Virus record (IMG/VR): IMGVR_UViG_3300037088_000361
Span: 63,844 to 127,843 of that record
From: a virus
Reading direction: 5' to 3' (one strand)
DNA: 64,000 bases
The notes under the pieces were generated by a model that saw nothing but the letters and a program-made list of their open reading frames with translations, did no database searches and was not told where the DNA came from. The translations under genes were made by a program, and so were the position numbers. Below, piece after piece: positions 13,307-17,863 of the stretch (its first letter is position 1; the number at the start of each line of letters is the position of its first letter).

Positions 13307-13384
13307 GTTCCGGTGCGGCGAGTGGCTAAGCCAGTTGCCTTACAAGCAACCAATTCGGGGGTTCGAGTCCCTCCCGGAACACCA
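13307..13384 (+). tRNA. tRNA-Val(TAC)
   Basis: Acceptor GTTCCGG/CCGGAAC-A-CCA; anticodon arm GTTGC-CTTACAA-GCAAC; GTTCGAG T-loop. Confidence 0.85.
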
Positions 13385-13395
13385 AAATTGGATAT

Positions 13396-13473
13396 GCCCC
13401 GATAGCTTAGTGGCTTCAAAGCGCCACCTTCACACGATGGAGAACACAGGTTCGAGTCCTGTTCGGGGCACCA
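13396..13473 (+). tRNA. tRNA-Val(CAC)
   Basis: GCCCCGA/TCGGGGC-A-CCA; loop TTCACAC; one mismatch in the anticodon stem. Confidence 0.8.
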
Positions 13474-13480
13474 AGTAAGT

Positions 13481-13528
13481 CCGCTGAGGTCCAGCGGCAG
13501 GACACCGGCTCTGACACGCCGGTCAACG
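13481..13528 (+). pseudogene. 5' part of a tRNA-Val(GAC)-like gene
   Basis: D-arm GTCC-AGCGGCA-GGAC and arm CCGGC-TCTGACAC-GCCGG present; no T-arm or matching 3' acceptor strand. Confidence 0.5.
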
Positions 13529-13567
13529 TAAACAGGGGCTGCGACAATGCCCCCACAAGATTTAAGT

Positions 13568-13701
13568 CTTGCCTTGTGGCGGCGAAAGCCGCAGCAGCCT
13601 GTGGAAAGGCTGTAAATAGAGAGGCATCCAAGACTGGCTCGTCCCGTTCGATTCGGGATATAGTGTCTCTGGGGAATAGTAGGCCAGTCCACAAGGCGAG
13701 T
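13568..13701 (+). ncRNA. unidentified structured RNA with possible pseudoknot
   Basis: Closing stem GCCTTGTGG/CCACAAGGC; GCGGC-GAAA-GCCGC; crossing pairs AGAGGCAT/GTGTCTCT and GACTGGC/GCCAGTC. Confidence 0.55.
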
Positions 13702-13707
13702 TTTTTA

Positions 13708-13785
13708 GCGGGAATAGCTCAGTTGGTAGAGCGCAACCTTGCCAAGGTTGAGGTTTCACGGGTTCGAACCCCGTTTCCCGCTCCA
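13708..13785 (+). tRNA. tRNA-Gly(GCC)
   Basis: GCGGGAA...CAACC-TTGCCAA-GGTTG...TTCCCGC-T-CCA. Confidence 0.95.
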
Positions 13786-13790
13786 AGTTT

Positions 13791-13866
13791 GGGCCTGTAG
13801 CTCATTTGGCAGAGCGCCTGTTTTGCAAGCAGGAGGCGAAGGGTTCAAATCCCTTTAGGTCCACCA
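13791..13866 (+). tRNA. tRNA-Ala(TGC)
   Basis: GGGCCTG/TAGGTCC-A-CCA with G3-U70; loop TTTGCAA. Confidence 0.93.
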
Positions 13867-13870
13867 AGTT

Positions 13871-14410
13871 TTAGGCATACTTAGACATTCCTCGTGATTG
13901 TCTTCCGTTGCCTTTGTTACGACCGCAGAAAGTTGGAGTTTGGCTGGTGCAGTTAGGGCATAATAGACGTACATTGTTTGGTTTGCTGTCTCCAGCGTTT
14001 CCATCTATGTGGTCTACAACCATGGTGATGGGTTTGTCGCACCAAATAGGAGGAAGTCCACAGATTTCACATCTGTTTCCTCTTTTTTCAATGAGGATGT
14101 TACGGATGGTGCTCCTTTTGGTTACTTGACCTAACTCAAACCTTTTTACGGCCTGAGAGTAGAGCGACCCCCTACTTACCGGCTTAGGTTTCTTTGGTCT
14201 TTTGGTGTTTGTTATCGTTGCAGAGCACGAGCTAGAGCAGTAAATGTTTGTAAAGCGTTTATTGTATGAAATAGGTTCTTGACAGCATAAACATCTTTTA
14301 GGGTTGAGCAGGTACCTAGCCTCATTTTTAGCTGTTCTGCTTACATTACTGCAAGATAGGGAACAGTAAGTGTATCTGGTTTCTCTTTTGCAGATTAAGC
14401 AGTTATTCAT
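13871..14410 (-). CDS. HNH homing endonuclease inserted in the tRNA array
   Basis: YCSxSC repeats; CEICG...DHIDGN...NVRLLCPNC. Confidence 0.88.
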   Translation of the reverse strand: MNNCLICKRETRYTYCSLSCSNVSRTAKNEARYLLNPKRCLCCQEPISYNKRFTNIYCSSSCSATITNTKRPKKPKPVSRGSLYSQAVKRFELGQVTKRSTIRNILIEKRGNRCEICGLPPIWCDKPITMVVDHIDGNAGDSKPNNVRLLCPNCTSQTPTFCGRNKGNGRQSRGMSKYA

Positions 14411-14420
14411 GCAGTTTTTG

Positions 14421-14495
14421 GCGGGACTGATGTTAATGGCAGCATGTCACCCTTCCAAGGTGAACGTACCGATTCGACTTCGGTGTCCCGCTCCA
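14421..14495 (+). tRNA. tRNA-Gly(TCC)
   Basis: GCGGGAC/GTCCCGC-T-CCA; TCACC-CTTCCAA-GGTGA. Confidence 0.9.
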
Positions 14496-14538
14496 ACCTC
14501 CTAATTAGGGGGTCGAAAGTTAGTTTTCGTTAGGTTTT

Positions 14539-14612
14539 GCGGGTATGGTATATTGGCTGTGCCCAACCTTCCCAAGGTTGTGAAACGGATTCGATTTCCG
14601 TTACCCGCTCCA
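14539..14612 (+). tRNA. tRNA-Gly(CCC)
   Basis: GCGGGTA/TACCCGC-T-CCA; CAACC-TTCCCAA-GGTTG. Confidence 0.9.
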
Positions 14613-14618
14613 AGATGT

Positions 14619-14764
14619 AGTCGCTCCAAGGGCTGTCGAAGCTGACGAGCGGCGAGGTCTCGCAAACAGGGACCCCGAGTAAGGGGGGCTGTGGTGGTCT
14701 CCCCGAAACGGGTCCCTACGTGGCGGGACCTGCGGATGACTGACCTAACCAGTCGGTTGTCCCA
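14619..14764 (+). ncRNA. unidentified multi-stem RNA with loop-E-like motif
   Basis: Nested stems AGGTCTCGC/GCGGGACCT and AGGGACCC/GGGTCCCT, internal loop GAGTA/GAA, flanking hairpins. Confidence 0.5.
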
Positions 14765-14773
14765 AATTTTTGT

Positions 14774-14848
14774 GGGCTCGTGGTGTAGTGGGAGCACGTA
14801 TCGCTGGCAGCGATAAGGTCGGGAGTTCAAATCTCCCCGAGTCCACCA
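14774..14848 (+). tRNA. tRNA-Ala(GGC)
   Basis: GGGCTCG/CGAGTCC-A-CCA with G3-U70; TATCG-CTGGCAG-CGATA. Confidence 0.9.
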
Positions 14849-16207: not shown

Positions 16208-16257
16208 AGTTTCAACCCCCGCCATGCTAGGGGGAACACTGCATGACGGGAGGATAG

Positions 16258-16509
16258 ATGTTTACACTGTGGCATTGGTTTTTGAATTTCTTTTTTTGGC
16301 TGGTAAACTTGGTAATTTGGGTGATAAAAAACCCGGATGCCTTATTTACTTGGTTTTCCAAATGGGTAGTAATCGGGTGGATGGTGGTTCACACTATTCA
16401 CTGGGCACGAGTGGAATACGTGAGGCTTTCCATTTCCACCGAGAGAAAGATTGCCAAGATTCGCCAGCCAGTGGACCCGAGTAAGGAGTCGGCTGAGGAA
16501 GAAGAGTAG
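16258..16509 (+). CDS. small Trp-rich membrane protein
   Basis: GGAGGA RBS; two hydrophobic segments; acidic tail. Confidence 0.6.
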   Translation: MFTLWHWFLNFFFWLVNLVIWVIKNPDALFTWFSKWVVIGWMVVHTIHWARVEYVRLSISTERKIAKIRQPVDPSKESAEEEE

Positions 16510-16689
16510 GTATGAAAACGTGCTCTGCTTGCGGATTTAAGGGACGGTGGTTGACCCATTTCTGTCCTGGACCCCCCGGACACGGGATTACTGACCTTGG
16601 GAACGGTTATATTTCCGTCGAGACTTTTCCCCTCTATCCGGCACAGGTGGTTGACCTTTCTGAAGCCAAGGAGCGAGATTTTAAGATTA

Positions 16690-16766
16690 GCACGGATACC
16701 CAAGCGGCCAAAGGGGATGGTCTGCAAAACCATTAGTCGTCAGTTCAAATCTGACTCCGTGCTCCA
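16690..16766 (+). tRNA. tRNA-Cys(GCA)
   Basis: GCACGGA/TCCGTGC-T-CCA; ATGGT-CTGCAAA-ACCAT. Confidence 0.9.
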
Positions 16767-16773
16767 ATTTTAT

Positions 16774-16848
16774 GGCCTCATCGTCTAGCGGCTAGGACGG
16801 CAGACTTTCAATCTGCAAAGGAGAGTTCGACTCTCTCTGGGGCTACCA
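16774..16848 (+). tRNA. tRNA-Glu(TTC)
   Basis: GGCCTCA/TGGGGCT-A-CCA; GCAGA-CTTTCAA-TCTGC. Confidence 0.92.
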
Positions 16849-16853
16849 AATAT

Positions 16854-16948
16854 GGCGGACAGCACAGGCGTGCAGGCGGGTCCTATAAACCTGAAGTCGC
16901 CCTAGATAGGGGTGTCCGGCGTGGGTTCGAGTCCCCGGTCCGCTACCA
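16854..16948 (+). tRNA. atypical tRNA with TAT (UAU) anticodon and long variable arm
   Basis: GGCGGAC/GTCCGCT-A-CCA; D-arm GCAC-AGGC-GTGC; loop CCTATAA; long variable arm; bulged T-stem. Confidence 0.7.
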
Positions 16949-16957
16949 AATTTTTTG

Positions 16958-16985
16958 TTGACAAATCATTTTTCAGTTGTATTAT
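16958..16985 (+). promoter_or_regulatory. sigma70-like promoter upstream of tmRNA
   Basis: TTGACA-N16-TATTAT. Confidence 0.7.
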
Positions 16986-16998
16986 GTAGATGAAGACT

Positions 16999-17070
16999 GG
17001 AACACTCCAGTGGTTACAAAAGGGCTAAGGCCGCTCACACTGGGTAGCGGGGGATAACCTGCGGTGTTCC
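16999..17070 (+). ncRNA. structured RNA (possible pseudoknot) 5' of tmRNA
   Basis: GGAACAC/GTGTTCC, GGTTA/TAACC, CCGCT/AGCGG; loop CACTGG complementary to CCAGTG. Confidence 0.45.
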
Positions 17071-17074
17071 GTTT

Positions 17075-17438
17075 GGGGGCGTCAGGTTTCGACGGGGACG
17101 CTCATTCTCAAGAGGCATGCCGGGGGAGAGCCTAACACCACCCGTAATCGGTAAAGGGCAATGTACTTGCAGAACCACTTAGCATGTACGCTATGGCCTA
17201 AAGCGATTTAGGTCACATCCACTCTTCCAGACTCGCATGTAGGAGACCGGATGTCGATATGGCGGGAGTAGTCTTGGCCAAGCTTGTAAGCCAAGGCGAA
17301 TTACTGAAAGCTAGTCACGGCTCTTGTATCGCTCAGTACCTTGGAGCTGTGGCGAAAAGAAGTGGAACTGAGATAAGCATGTAGTCTCTTGACGGTGAAG
17401 TCTTTCGGACGGGGTTTCGATTACCCCCGCCTCCACCA
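17075..17438 (+). ncRNA. ssrA: tmRNA
   Basis: 5' GGGGGCG...GGTTTCGACGGG; 3' CGGACGGGG...CGCCTCCACCA; tag frame 17169-17201 encodes AEPLSMYAMA*. Confidence 0.92.
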
Positions 17439-17454
17439 AAATTTTAGAAGGTGT

Positions 17455-17559
17455 ATGAACCTGCTGCAATATCTCGGATGTGGCATGTTTACCTTGGTGA
17501 TGGTAAGCGTCTTGGGTCTGTGGGTTTACGATTATGTTAAGTATACCAAGCAGTTTTGA
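17455..17559 (+). CDS. 34-aa single-pass membrane peptide
   Basis: AAGGTG RBS; MNLLQYLGCGMFTLVMVSVLGLWVYDYVKYTKQF. Confidence 0.45.
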   Translation: MNLLQYLGCGMFTLVMVSVLGLWVYDYVKYTKQF

Positions 17560-17615
17560 ACGGGCGTAGTTAAGCTTGGTAAGACTTTATCTCTCTTATA
17601 TAGAGGAGACACGAA

Positions 17616-17777
17616 ATGGCAAACGCAGAGATGGCACCAACGCCGCAGGGGACTAGGCTGTCCTCTGAACAGTTTGAAAAAGCCGTTCTTGAGTTTCAGA
17701 GTAATAAGAATGAGACCCGTGCGGCTGAACTTTGGGGAATCATAGAAAACCACCTATTTCACTCAGTGGTTAGATAA
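17616..17777 (+). CDS. 53-aa hypothetical protein
   Basis: GAGGAG RBS; MANAEMAPTPQG...FHSVVR; preceded by a class B promoter-like motif. Confidence 0.5.
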   Translation: MANAEMAPTPQGTRLSSEQFEKAVLEFQSNKNETRAAELWGIIENHLFHSVVR

Positions 17778-17787
17778 TTAAATTTGA

Positions 17788-17863
17788 GCGGGGTTGACAC
17801 ATTGGTTGCGTCCCGGCTTCCCAAGCCGTGGTTAAGTGAGTCCGATTCTCACACCCCGCTCCA
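17788..17863 (+). tRNA. second, degenerate tRNA-Gly(CCC)
   Basis: GCGGGGT/ACCCCGC-T-CCA; loop TTCCCAA; T-loop variant TCCGATT. Confidence 0.7.

Follow-up and report, generated by a model that had tools for sequence, protein, structure and literature searches.

Codon-matched leader ORFs precede the tRNA arrays of a giant phage: likely leader-peptide attenuation of a GNN tRNA block

The tRNA cluster that serves the GNN codons and Cys belongs to an uncultured giant phage whose genome, roughly 310 kb long, carries about four tRNA blocks, this one included; the source contig represents about 41% of that genome. At the head of each block stand a promoter-like site, a short leader ORF rich in the amino acids of its own tRNAs and, ahead of the first tRNA, a hairpin followed by a T-run (13098-13295 in the window, the 64,000-nucleotide stretch analysed here). 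The cluster, termed module A, is likely to be a transcription unit of its own within a partitioned complement, governed by leader-peptide attenuation, and the codon-matched leaders of the blocks probably switch their arrays on when those codons are read slowly. Module A comprises all C36 anticodons (Val, Ala, Gly, Asp, Glu) and Cys(GCA), with the UAU tRNA added in the window's subgroup; its order is promoter-like site, 36-codon leader, predicted alternative RNA helices, intrinsic terminator and tRNA genes. This would be classical leader-peptide attenuation acting on tRNA genes, a form of control of which we found no description in the literature.

Across the whole window, ARAGORN identifies 14 tRNA genes, all on the + strand within 13307-17863, and Rfam matches 13 of them with 48.6-66.5 bits against a cut-off of 29. 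The following genes are called by both programs unless marked otherwise:
13307-13384, + strand, tRNA-Val(TAC)
13396-13473, + strand, tRNA-Val(CAC)
13708-13785, + strand, tRNA-Gly(GCC)
13791-13866, + strand, tRNA-Ala(TGC)
14421-14495, + strand, tRNA-Gly(TCC)
14539-14612, + strand, tRNA-Gly(CCC), first copy
14774-14848, + strand, tRNA-Ala(GGC)
15229-15305, + strand, tRNA-Asp(GTC)
15314-15386, + strand, tRNA-Val(GAC)
16051-16126, + strand, tRNA-Ala(CGC)
16134-16207, + strand, tRNA-Glu(CTC)
16690-16766, + strand, tRNA-Cys(GCA)
16774-16848, + strand, tRNA-Glu(TTC)
16853-16945, + strand, long-arm tRNA-like gene with UAU anticodon and CCA end (weak call, sub-threshold in Rfam only)
17788-17863, + strand, second tRNA-Gly(CCC), a divergent copy whose D-arm and T-loop are poor (ARAGORN only)

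The first-pass annotation had reported all 12 C36 anticodons together with Cys(GCA), and ARAGORN recovers them, with 13 tRNAs also found by Rfam. Its statement that the window holds no tRNA outside the GNN set, Cys and UAU agrees with both programs; ARAGORN calls none for Met, Leu, Ser, Arg, Lys, Pro, Thr, Asn, Gln, Tyr, Trp, His or Phe. Among the extras it listed, Cys(GCA) is firm, but the UAU tRNA and the second Gly(CCC) are weak calls, the latter because Rfam matches nothing there even with the limit relaxed to E<=5. Lone Gly(CCC) genes also lie downstream of the array in L006, L015 and G011. An encoded CCA end is absent only in Val(GAC) among the array tRNAs. The acceptor stems of the ARAGORN structures agree with the anticodons, showing G3:U70 in all three Ala tRNAs, U73 in Gly and Cys, A73 in Val and G73 in Asp, which we take to be the identity elements of these tRNAs. 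A random draw of 13 distinct anticodons from 45 would contain all 12 C36 anticodons with p ~4.5e-10, and a six-amino-acid group would contain all five GNN amino acids with p ~3.9e-4; a chance origin of the complete C36 set is excluded.

The same bias is kept at 21 related loci, which were searched for an unbiased anticodon mix and whose RNR proteins share 62-76% identity with that of the window. Their 251 tRNA calls comprise 219 C36, 27 Cys, 2 UAU and 3 undetermined, with none for another amino acid. Cys(GCA), an A36 anticodon, is always part of the GNN module. In L009, L010, L011 and L021, the controlled unit leaves out one Ala(TGC) gene, which is placed upstream of the leader.

Other rows of the code are served elsewhere on the contig and in relatives. 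The contig (G000) is linear and 41% complete by CheckV, and relatives near 100 kb in length reach 24-41% completeness. At genome positions 10109-11450, on the minus strand, the same contig carries a second array with Gln(TTG), an odd tRNA, Thr TGT/GGT/CGT and Ile(GAT). Relative G011 (316,945 bp, 99% complete), with a leader of the same type as the window's, has 62 Rfam tRNA hits in four arrays, 58 of which ARAGORN assigns, covering all 20 amino acids; the other complete or near-complete clade relatives, G001 and G003, have 69 and 50 tRNA genes or hits. The non-GNN arrays of the relatives hold Tyr/Leu/Ser, His/Arg/Asn/Lys/Phe/Met/Pro/Gln/Trp and Ile/Thr/Gln, and complete relatives encode full isoacceptor sets outside the GNN block (three Thr, three Pro, four to six Arg, four to six Leu, three to four Ser). 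Because other rows are encoded in other arrays, the C36 set is one block of a full complement rather than a selective patch, and the earlier description of the GNN row 'and almost nothing else' holds for the window but not for the phage. Block borders vary, since two blocks that stand apart in G001 are fused in G011.

The region between the upstream neighbour and the first tRNA contains the following elements:
13098-13106, + strand, promoter-like element of the extended -10 type (TGnTATTAT), heading the array, read from the sequence
13115-13120, + strand, Shine-Dalgarno-like AGGGAG before the leader ORF, from the sequence
13127-13237, + strand, leader ORF of 36 codons, MNMATHITLGDIEAVGIAEAAVVCEGGDTSPSGGLG, from the ORF and its homologues in relatives
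13202-13221, + strand, hairpin P1 (GGAGGCGA / UACG loop / UCGCCUUC) inside the leader ORF end, region 1:2, from the MFE fold
13216-13264, + strand, candidate antiterminator, GCCUUCGGGA (13216-13225) with UCCCGAAGGC (13255-13264), from sequence pairing
13262-13295, + strand, intrinsic terminator, a 9-bp stem-loop (13262-13284) with a T-run (13286-13295), from scan and fold

The promoter-like element was missed by the promoter consensus scan because it lacks a good -35 hexamer; the motif GGTATTATAT(A)G occupies the same position before the leader ORF in L005, L006, L007 and L015. Homologous leader ORFs precede tRNA-Val(TAC) in each of the other 14 distinct related loci that were examined. Counting the window, all 15 distinct loci for which upstream sequence exists show the order V/A/G/D/E/C-rich leader ORF, hairpin, T-run and tRNA-Val(TAC). 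Between the window and L005, the leader ORF differs by 8 synonymous and 2 non-synonymous changes, a sign of coding constraint, and it is predicted to be translated. In the leader core (codons 10-28), 18 of 19 codons are readable by the array's own tRNAs; the core probes 13 of the array's 14 anticodons.

Leaders of the other arrays follow the content of those arrays. The Ser/Leu leader reads ...SSLSSSSSS..., the Tyr/Leu leader ...SLSLSLLYSLL, the Trp/His/Arg/Asn/Gln/Lys leader ...KHN..RKQWRNRRH, the Pro/Met/Phe leader MRPFTMFRPCMPTM and the Ile/Thr/Gln leader KQTQTTRTTTTQRII; the G011 array that fuses two blocks has a fused leader, RNRKPNPMQWQPKRHF, and in the second array of the contig the leader is MMNITMPHTQTQTQIW, with a helix after it in which the terminator 5' arm is sequestered. 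Whole-peptide enrichments are modest (binomial tails 2e-2 to 3e-5), and the own module is the best enrichment match for 16 of 17 leaders; the B1_G003 leader fits the Ser/Leu set slightly better than its own module. The search for further arrays with their own leaders, proposed in the first-pass annotation, finds them on the contig and in relatives. Its suggestion of separately regulated arrays stands in substance, given the conserved content and the own promoter-like site, codon-matched leader ORF and terminator; partition by codon row applies only to the GNN block, as no other block equals a row.

The UAU tRNA-like gene is not called by ARAGORN in the window, and its sole Rfam match is a sub-threshold tRNA-Sec (23.6 bits, cut-off 47). 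Its sequence aligns with genes of 93-94 nt in L007 and L015, which ARAGORN identifies as tRNA-Ile(tat). The UAU anticodon-loop motif occurs in the window and in three of six other group-1 loci searched (L007, L015, L180), and was found neither in group-1 loci L005, L006 and L183 nor in any of nine other loci. ATA codons are present in 5/5 group-1 leaders and 0/4 group-2 leaders, so that leader ATA is confined to the phage subgroup in which an array UAU tRNA was found.

When matching charged tRNAs are plentiful, the ribosome would reach the stop codon, the terminator would form and the array would be off. A shortage of any matching charged tRNA would stall the ribosome in the leader core and let region 2 pair with region 3; this pairing would weaken the terminator, and RNA polymerase would enter the tRNA genes. 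The terminator ends 11 nt before the first tRNA, and its stem covaries in six relatives, with 5 of 9 pairs changed on both sides and 97.9% of cells paired. P1 is paired in 95.8% of cells with one compensatory pair, and the observed pairing or covariation of P1 plus terminator is reached by 0 of 500 shuffles. The stop codon UAG (13235-13237) sits in a hairpin enclosed by the candidate antiterminator, whose 3' strand overlaps the terminator 5' arm by only 3 nt (GGC). In the same six relatives, 95% of antiterminator cells are pairable, against 28-58% with the partners slid; there is only one compensatory pair, and 218 of 500 shuffles equal its score. The candidate antiterminator, its pairing conserved rather than covarying, is weakly supported. 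All three hairpins coexist in the full-length MFE structure, and in transcripts that lack the terminator 3' arm, pairing with upstream sequence takes up only 3 of 9 arm bases, with mononucleotide shuffles as good in 93 of 100 cases.

In an equilibrium model, naked RNA gives the window terminator a probability of 0.83. A ribosome at codons 19-25 (EAAVVCE) lowers the value to 0.0-0.3; a ribosome at later codons and the stop brings it to at least 0.9. Nineteen units entered the ribosome-masking model; no terminator was detected by script search in B1_G005 and B2_G001, and among the 17 units with a modellable terminator about 7-8 exhibit a clear drop in terminator probability. The drop is small in A_L016, D_G001, B1_G003, C2_G003 and DB2_G011.

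It is improbable that history alone explains the arrangement, with constitutive arrays, short ORFs that are not sensors, hairpins that are ordinary terminators or processing sites, and a GNN grouping inherited by accident. Such a history would fit the weak antiterminator tests, the shifting module borders (two blocks apart in G001, merged in G011) and the tRNA sequences, whose mean identity is 0.481 within and 0.481 between modules, with 2472 of 5000 permutations reaching the observed difference; because tRNA similarity does not explain module membership, no structural logic for the grouping is found. However, only regulated read-through would give an evident role to a terminator placed between promoter and tRNA array. 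Of 17 leaders, 16 fit their own array best, leader content follows array content (a fused leader where arrays are fused, an ATA codon where there is a UAU tRNA), and leader changes are mostly synonymous.

Two further accounts concern what the tRNAs are for, and both are far less probable. Codon-usage compensation, the commonest published rationale for phage tRNAs, would supply tRNAs for codons used far more by the phage than by its host. GNN is indeed the largest codon class (32.8% of codons), with GGA at 21.3 and GGG at 24.5 per thousand, but 32.8% G at the first codon position is ordinary for proteins, codon use within the GNN boxes is fairly even, every synonymous anticodon is supplied instead of a biased subset, and a complete relative supplies all 20 amino acids. 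This rationale is tested in PMC6409571. The slimmest prospect is counter-defence, in which the phage carries exactly the tRNAs destroyed by a host C36-recognising anticodon nuclease or toxin. All 12 C36 tRNAs are present, including C34 isoacceptors dispensable by wobble, which resembles replacement rather than a codon-bias patch, and a depletion-sensing leader would respond to such an attack as well. Phages can use their own tRNAs to make up for those that host defences cleave. A defence that cleaves tRNA-Tyr, from which phage escapes by amplifying anti-defence loci, is described in PMC13096335. On the other side, we know of no C36-specific nuclease. The selection by a C36-directed nuclease or toxin suggested in the first-pass annotation is not supported, as G001, G003 and G011 carry other rows in other arrays; since complete relatives have full isoacceptor sets for these rows, completeness is a property of the whole complement and not of C36. 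Cys(GCA), with A36, is always in the module, and no tRNA repair gene occurs among 35 distinct contig ORFs scanned.

Leader-peptide attenuation has its closest counterpart in the enterobacterial trp, his, thr, ilvGMEDA and pheA attenuators, in which a short translated leader by the promoter is enriched in the sensed codons, the stop codon lies near RNA region 2 and an intrinsic terminator precedes the regulated genes; the thr and ilv attenuators sense several amino acids at once. The phage array shares the leader by the promoter, the stop near region 2, the terminator and, as predicted, the sensing of multiple amino acids and the regulation. In contrast, the phage element precedes tRNA genes rather than biosynthetic enzymes, so the sensor would report on its own products. 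A single leader can probe six or more amino acids (13 of 14 anticodons in the window), the element sits in a phage, and the antiterminator/terminator overlap is short (3 nt in the window). T-box riboswitches sense the charging of one specific tRNA, and a terminator/antiterminator choice sets transcription read-through. They bind uncharged tRNA directly, without a leader peptide, and their targets, for one amino acid each, are genes of aminoacyl-tRNA synthetases and amino-acid genes. The phage array is predicted to share charging sensing and the terminator choice; it differs in its leader peptide, several amino acids and tRNA genes as targets, and Rfam finds no T-box in the window.

Cyanobacterial L-arrays, such as the Anabaena trn operon, are described in the text of PMC8421152 as extra tRNA arrays that are normally silent and induced when translation is impaired. 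The phage array would be similar, an extra array predicted to be silent until translation is impaired, but the L-array of that account is a single array in a bacterial genome, against several codon-matched modules in the phage; the main text of PMC8421152 does not contain the words leader, attenuat- or terminator. For huge phages, Al-Shayeb et al. 2020 (PMC7162821) describe genomes >200 kb that encode tmRNA, further translation genes and as many as 67 tRNAs; the tRNA gene clusters of viruses in PMC6409571 contain 15-37 genes grouped by isotype synteny. In the passages considered, these two accounts make no mention of partition by amino-acid set, or of leader ORFs or terminators before arrays.

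Other genes lie in and around the array:
12650-13039, strand opposite to the array, Endonuclease VII ORF, the upstream neighbour
13871-14410, - strand, 179-aa ORF matching HNH_3 weakly (PF13392, E 9e-4, curated cut-off not reached)
15431-16060, + strand, 209-aa ORF inside the array with a C-terminal helix-turn-helix domain (PF02796 HTH_7, E 2.9e-7)
16958-16985, + strand, promoter-like site before the tmRNA gene (TTGACA, 16 nt, TATTAT; 11/12 matches, consensus scan)
17075-17438, + strand, tmRNA with tag peptide AEPLSMYAMA (ARAGORN; Rfam RF00023, 124.4 bits)

The 179-aa ORF is probably a homing endonuclease inserted in the array. A promoter-like site also precedes the tmRNA genes of G001 and G003.

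The window carries 14 tRNA genes and one tmRNA gene, as called by ARAGORN across all 64 kb, and all of them lie on the plus strand between positions 13307 and 17863 (array A).

13307-17863, plus strand: array A, with tRNA-Val TAC, CAC and GAC; Ala TGC, GGC and CGC; Gly GCC, TCC and CCC; Asp GTC; Glu CTC and TTC; Cys GCA; and a second Gly CCC (ARAGORN)

Together these genes hold all 12 anticodons that end in C (C36) with G, U or C at position 34, a complete set with p ~4.5e-10 as a random draw, and ARAGORN finds no tRNA for 13 other amino acids in the 64-kb window. The complete C36 set with few extras, noticed in the first-pass annotation, is confirmed: 13 of the 14 tRNAs have Rfam matches (48.6-66.5 bits, cut-off 29), CCA is encoded in 13 of the 14 genes, and the cloverleafs carry the acceptor-stem features expected for each anticodon. 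Two extras are weak. For the second Gly(CCC), relaxing the Rfam search to E<=5 still yields no match, and the UAU tRNA-like gene (16853-16945) matches only tRNA-Sec, below threshold; it is alignable with genes of relatives that ARAGORN calls tRNA-Ile(tat). The tmRNA scores 124.4 bits against RF00023 (gathering cut-off 47), which places it in the family, and its tag is AEPLSMYAMA (ARAGORN). In the text of Morgado and Vicente (2019, PMC6409571), a phage tRNA gene cluster is defined by a density of at least 2 tRNAs per kb and at least 15 genes. Array A has 3.1 per kb (14 ARAGORN genes in 4,557 bases), above that density; its gene count lies below 15 by ARAGORN and is 15 with the UAU tRNA-like gene included, and the arrays of relatives contain up to 16 tRNA genes.

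Two further elements are seen within and after the array. A spacer of ~160 nt (14613-14773) carries a hairpin and T-run (14734-14762) at its far end, directly in front of tRNA-Ala(GGC), and a similar spacer and hairpin occupy the same place in the 99%-complete relative G011; conceivable roles are those of an internal terminator, a processing element or a small RNA. The tmRNA lies downstream and is headed by a strong promoter-like site of its own (TTGACA, 16 nt, TATTAT; site and gene together 16958-17438), and promoter-like sites also precede the tmRNA genes of the relatives G001 and G003. Tags of relatives read AKPLAMYAMA, ANMQYAFA and ATAQYAFA.

Upstream of the array, a minus-strand Endonuclease VII gene is followed by a promoter-like site, a leader ORF, hairpins, a terminator and the first tRNA.

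13098-13106: extended -10-like site
13115-13120: AGGGAG, 7 nt upstream of the leader ORF
13127-13237: leader ORF of 36 codons, MNMATHITLGDIEAVGIAEAAVVCEGGDTSPSGGLG
13202-13221: hairpin inside the end of the leader ORF (P1)
following P1: second hairpin, with the leader stop codon in its loop
13262-13295: 9-bp stem (13262-13284) and T-run, 11 nt before tRNA-Val

Amino acids of the module account for 21 of the 35 leader residues, compared with 34% expected. In the leader core (codons 10-28), the array's own tRNAs can read 18 of 19 codons, among them GTA, GTC and GTG; GGC/GGT and GGA; GAA and GAG; TGT; and ATA for the UAU tRNA. A GGG codon follows the core near the end of the ORF, and the leader as a whole probes 13 of the 14 array anticodons. 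Each of the 14 other distinct related loci has a homologous leader before tRNA-Val(TAC), giving 15 distinct array-A loci with the window. Between the window and its relative L005, the leader ORF shows 8 synonymous and 2 non-synonymous differences. The ATA codon is present in 5/5 leaders of the subgroup with the UAU tRNA, compared with 0/4 leaders of the other subgroup. Of the 9 matches in a second motif scan, that in L182 falls within a coding region with no tRNA nearby; it was taken as a chance hit and dropped.

A predicted terminator between the leader and the tRNA genes is well supported by comparison of relatives. Across 6 relatives, 5 of the 9 terminator stem pairs are changed on both sides, and in P1 and the terminator 96.8% of cells pair, as opposed to 44-50% when the partners are slid; the observed values are reached by 0 of 500 shuffles. 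A scripted search of 19 units detects a hairpin and T-run in 17. A candidate antiterminator of 10 bp (13216-13225 with 13255-13264) is able to pair in 95% of cells in the 6 relatives; it is conserved, not covarying, and its shuffle test, with mononucleotide rather than dinucleotide-preserving shuffles, is non-discriminating. It shares 3 nt with the terminator in the window, and more in L005, in the related locus L016 and in module C, the contig's Ile/Thr/Gln array. When the window is folded at equilibrium with the ribosome footprint masked, the terminator probability is 0.83 for the naked RNA, falls to 0.0-0.3 with the ribosome at codons 19-25, and recovers to 0.9 or more between those codons and the stop. 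About 7-8 of 17 units show a similar drop; the rest do not. We therefore infer a ribosome-controlled switch from the anatomy.

The array is maintained across relatives at the same locus. The RNR protein encoded 3 kb upstream of it retrieves 80 viral loci as a query, 26 of which were scanned for tRNAs, comprising 16 at 62-76% RNR identity to the window and 10 more distant. An array lies a few kb downstream of the RNR gene in 14 of the 16 closer loci; the other two, L014 and L019, have no tRNA in the sequence stretch covered. Apart from an occasional UAU tRNA and tmRNA, these 14 arrays contain nothing but GNN-row and Cys tRNAs, whose order varies. The 10 more distant loci have tRNAs only in L063, as a mixed set. 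An unbiased anticodon mix at the same locus in related phages was looked for and is absent: among 251 ARAGORN calls in 21 array-A loci, of which some are truncated at a contig end and others nearly the same as one another, 219 are C36, 27 are Cys(GCA), 2 are Ile(tat), 3 are undetermined and 0 belong to any other amino acid. All 12 C36 anticodons are present in five of the 21. In a tRNA tree of 12 genomes, genes group by amino acid for Val (34/34), Gly (36/37), Ala (40/43) and Cys (18/19), and more weakly for Asp (14/20) and Glu (8/22). Position 34 of the anticodon seems to turn over while full sets stay, since isoacceptors are intermixed within genomes in the tree; orthology is not demonstrable at the anticodon level. 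Sister pairs in the window's own genome are Glu TTC with Glu CTC, and Ala CGC with Ala TGC.

Four relatives carry a tRNA-Ala(TGC) upstream of the array-A leader, outside the unit that would be under leader control (L010 15355, L021 15243, L011 15622, L009 6094). In L006 (~14360-14560), before the leaders of L022 and L008, and before the Ala(TGC) of L009 and L010, a promoter-like site leads into 150-200 nt of structured non-coding sequence, which is bounded by long terminal helices and lies immediately before the array-A leader or the first Ala(TGC).

In every giant relative scanned, the tRNAs form discrete arrays of conserved content. Whole-record scans give 69 genes including a tmRNA in G001 (463 kb, 100% complete), 50 including a tmRNA in G003 (332 kb, 100% complete) and 31 in G005 (170 kb, 54% complete); relatives of ~100 kb are 24-41% complete. 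G011 (317 kb, 99% complete) has the window's leader type and 62 Rfam tRNA hits, and its four arrays jointly supply all 20 amino acids.

G011 array 1: Tyr/Leu/Ser
G011 array 2: His/Arg/Asn/Lys/Phe/Met/Pro/Gln/Trp
G011 array 3: Val/Gly/Ala/Asp/Glu/Cys
G011 array 4: Ile/Thr/Gln

A linear virus contig of 127,843 bases, 41% complete (CheckV), has the window as its second half and covers the last two of these arrays. Its second array lies in the first half.

First half of the contig, minus strand: Gln TTG, an odd tRNA, and Thr TGT, GGT and CGT (ARAGORN), with Ile GAT at relaxed threshold

By synteny with G011, the remaining two arrays would lie beyond the contig ends. Two explanations had been offered for the complete C36 set, namely selection by a host nuclease or toxin acting on C36 tRNAs, and a partition of tRNAs into separately regulated arrays. 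A set restricted to nuclease targets is not what the phages carry: the tRNAs of complete relatives cover all 20 amino acids, and the contig itself has Thr, Gln and Ile tRNA genes. Selection by a nuclease is not supported. Because the relatives' arrays cover all 20 amino acids and the contig only two arrays, the lack of other tRNAs in the window is a limit of the sequence and a C36 nuclease is not needed to account for it. Partition is borne out in substance: the arrays are discrete and conserved, the leader design stands before each, and the leaders match their arrays as follows.

Array Ser (x4) and Leu: leader core SSLSSSSSS
Array Trp/His/Arg/Asn/Gln/Lys: leader core KHN..RKQWRNRRH
Array Tyr/Leu: leader core SLSLSLLYSLL
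Array Pro/Met/Phe: leader core MRPFTMFRPCMPTM
Array Ile/Thr/Gln: leader core KQTQTTRTTTTQRII
G011 merged array His/Arg/Asn/Lys/Phe/Met/Pro/Gln/Trp: leader core RNRKPNPMQWQPKRHF
G011 array Tyr/Leu/Ser: leader core LSSNSLSSLSYSSSLLS
Genome 12520-12446, minus strand, array Ile/Thr/Gln of the window's contig: leader core MMNITMPHTQTQTQIW

Downstream of the contig's Ile/Thr/Gln leader, a helix incorporates the 5' arm of the terminator. The amino acids of the own module are the most enriched ones in 16 of 17 leaders, and the one exception is slightly higher for the Ser/Leu set. Leader content shifts with array content, both in these matched pairs and in the ATA codon that accompanies the UAU tRNA, and this co-variation argues for the leader as a sensor. 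In the Ile/Thr/Gln/Lys array of G001 (238747-239065), G003 (192202-192488) and the related locus L168 (5291-5462), two or three tRNAs have a CTA anticodon; these are amber suppressors, labelled Pyl by ARAGORN, and the giant relatives carrying them may treat TAG as a sense codon. No such tRNA turned up in the window's contig or the four G011 array regions.

Why one block should coincide with the GNN row is a concrete question raised by these arrays. Arrays built by duplication across amino-acid identities are rejected for short-arm tRNAs, as module membership is not mirrored in tRNA similarity: identity is 0.481 within modules and 0.481 between them, and 2472 of 5000 permutations reach the observed difference, in a comparison that leaves out Tyr, Leu and Ser, which share one G011 array. 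Tyr, Leu and Ser tRNAs are the long-variable-arm tRNAs of bacteria. A six-amino-acid set that includes all five GNN amino acids has p ~3.9e-4, before allowing for other rows or columns one might notice. The grouping of GNN with Cys is constant in 21/21 loci, and the borders of other modules move. That the coincidence is functional and not historical, with GNN-reading tRNAs as a physiological unit sensed and replenished as a set by one leader, strikes us as unlikely. C36 tRNAs may share a lack of heavy modification at position 37, and a possible reason for such a unit is that GNN-reading tRNAs alone need no t6A, i6A or m1G there and work once made; possibly, instead, their charged pools fall together early in infection. 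If the row were functional in this way, four or five leaders would constitute a codon-resolved dashboard of the host translation state, and no virus is known to have been described with sensing of this kind.

The usual rationale for tRNA genes in phages is codon bias, or making good the tRNAs that host defences remove, and the genes are treated as constitutive cargo. Here, a whole giant-phage clade splits its full tRNA complement into blocks, each behind a leader in its own codons. As in leader-peptide attenuators, array A has a short ORF with a ribosome-binding site between the promoter-like site and the tRNA genes, enrichment of the leader in the codons that would be sensed, and a predicted intrinsic terminator between the leader and those genes. 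The anatomy is also like that of multivalent attenuators of amino-acid operons; the target there is the genes making or charging the sensed amino acid, whereas here it is tRNA genes. If the anatomy works as suggested, the phage would gauge decoding speed per codon class and make tRNAs only where supply is short. Tied to ribosome stalling in this way, tRNA supply would be under feedback control, an application of attenuation for which no published example was found. The nearest published analogue found is the Anabaena tRNA array (PMC8421152), which according to its main text is induced by translational stress, as is proposed for array A; control there is at the promoter, and the words leader, attenuat- and terminator are absent from that main text. 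Neither a partition of the tRNA complement nor leaders are mentioned in passages from the huge-phage (PMC7162821) and virus tRNA-cluster (PMC6409571) papers. No account of leader-peptide control of tRNA genes was found in the literature, supplements, possibly with huge-phage array maps, lying outside the search. The ~230-base element (13080-13306) is directly testable, with natural variants at hand.

The contig is that of a phage. It encodes ribonucleotide reductase, helicases, a UvsX-like recombinase, a collagen-like tail fibre and many homing endonucleases; most of its large proteins have no PHROG match. Among 35 distinct ORFs scanned of ~125 (PHROG, Pfam), replication, recombination, tail-fibre and homing-endonuclease genes are found, and none for tRNA repair, CCA addition or synthetases. 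GNN codons make up 32.8% of codons, an ordinary share, with even usage. Positions 13000-18000 give only tRNA-sized blastn matches (<=4% of the query) among 50,697 phage records, hence no named close relative there, and the 178-aa ORF at 18073-18609 finds no relative in viral contigs. Against genome contigs, the RNR protein matches 7 loci (42-59% identity) in metagenome bins of unrelated phyla, from which no host is inferable. No RNA dataset is listed with the stretch 12900-18000; the entries listed are DNA contigs from peat metagenomes. Near the contig start stands a run of 22 C (genome 1-70, outside the window). Homing-endonuclease-like ORFs (GIY-YIG/NUMOD3, HNH) are located at window positions 10191-10907, 13871-14410, 36557-37837 and 41199-41972 and at genome positions 2080-3291 and 43962-44993, several of them within or beside tRNA arrays. 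One such ORF lies between the module C leader and the module C tRNAs of the window's contig, and in the related locus L013 an HNH-like ORF sits between the leader and terminator and tRNA-Val(TAC).
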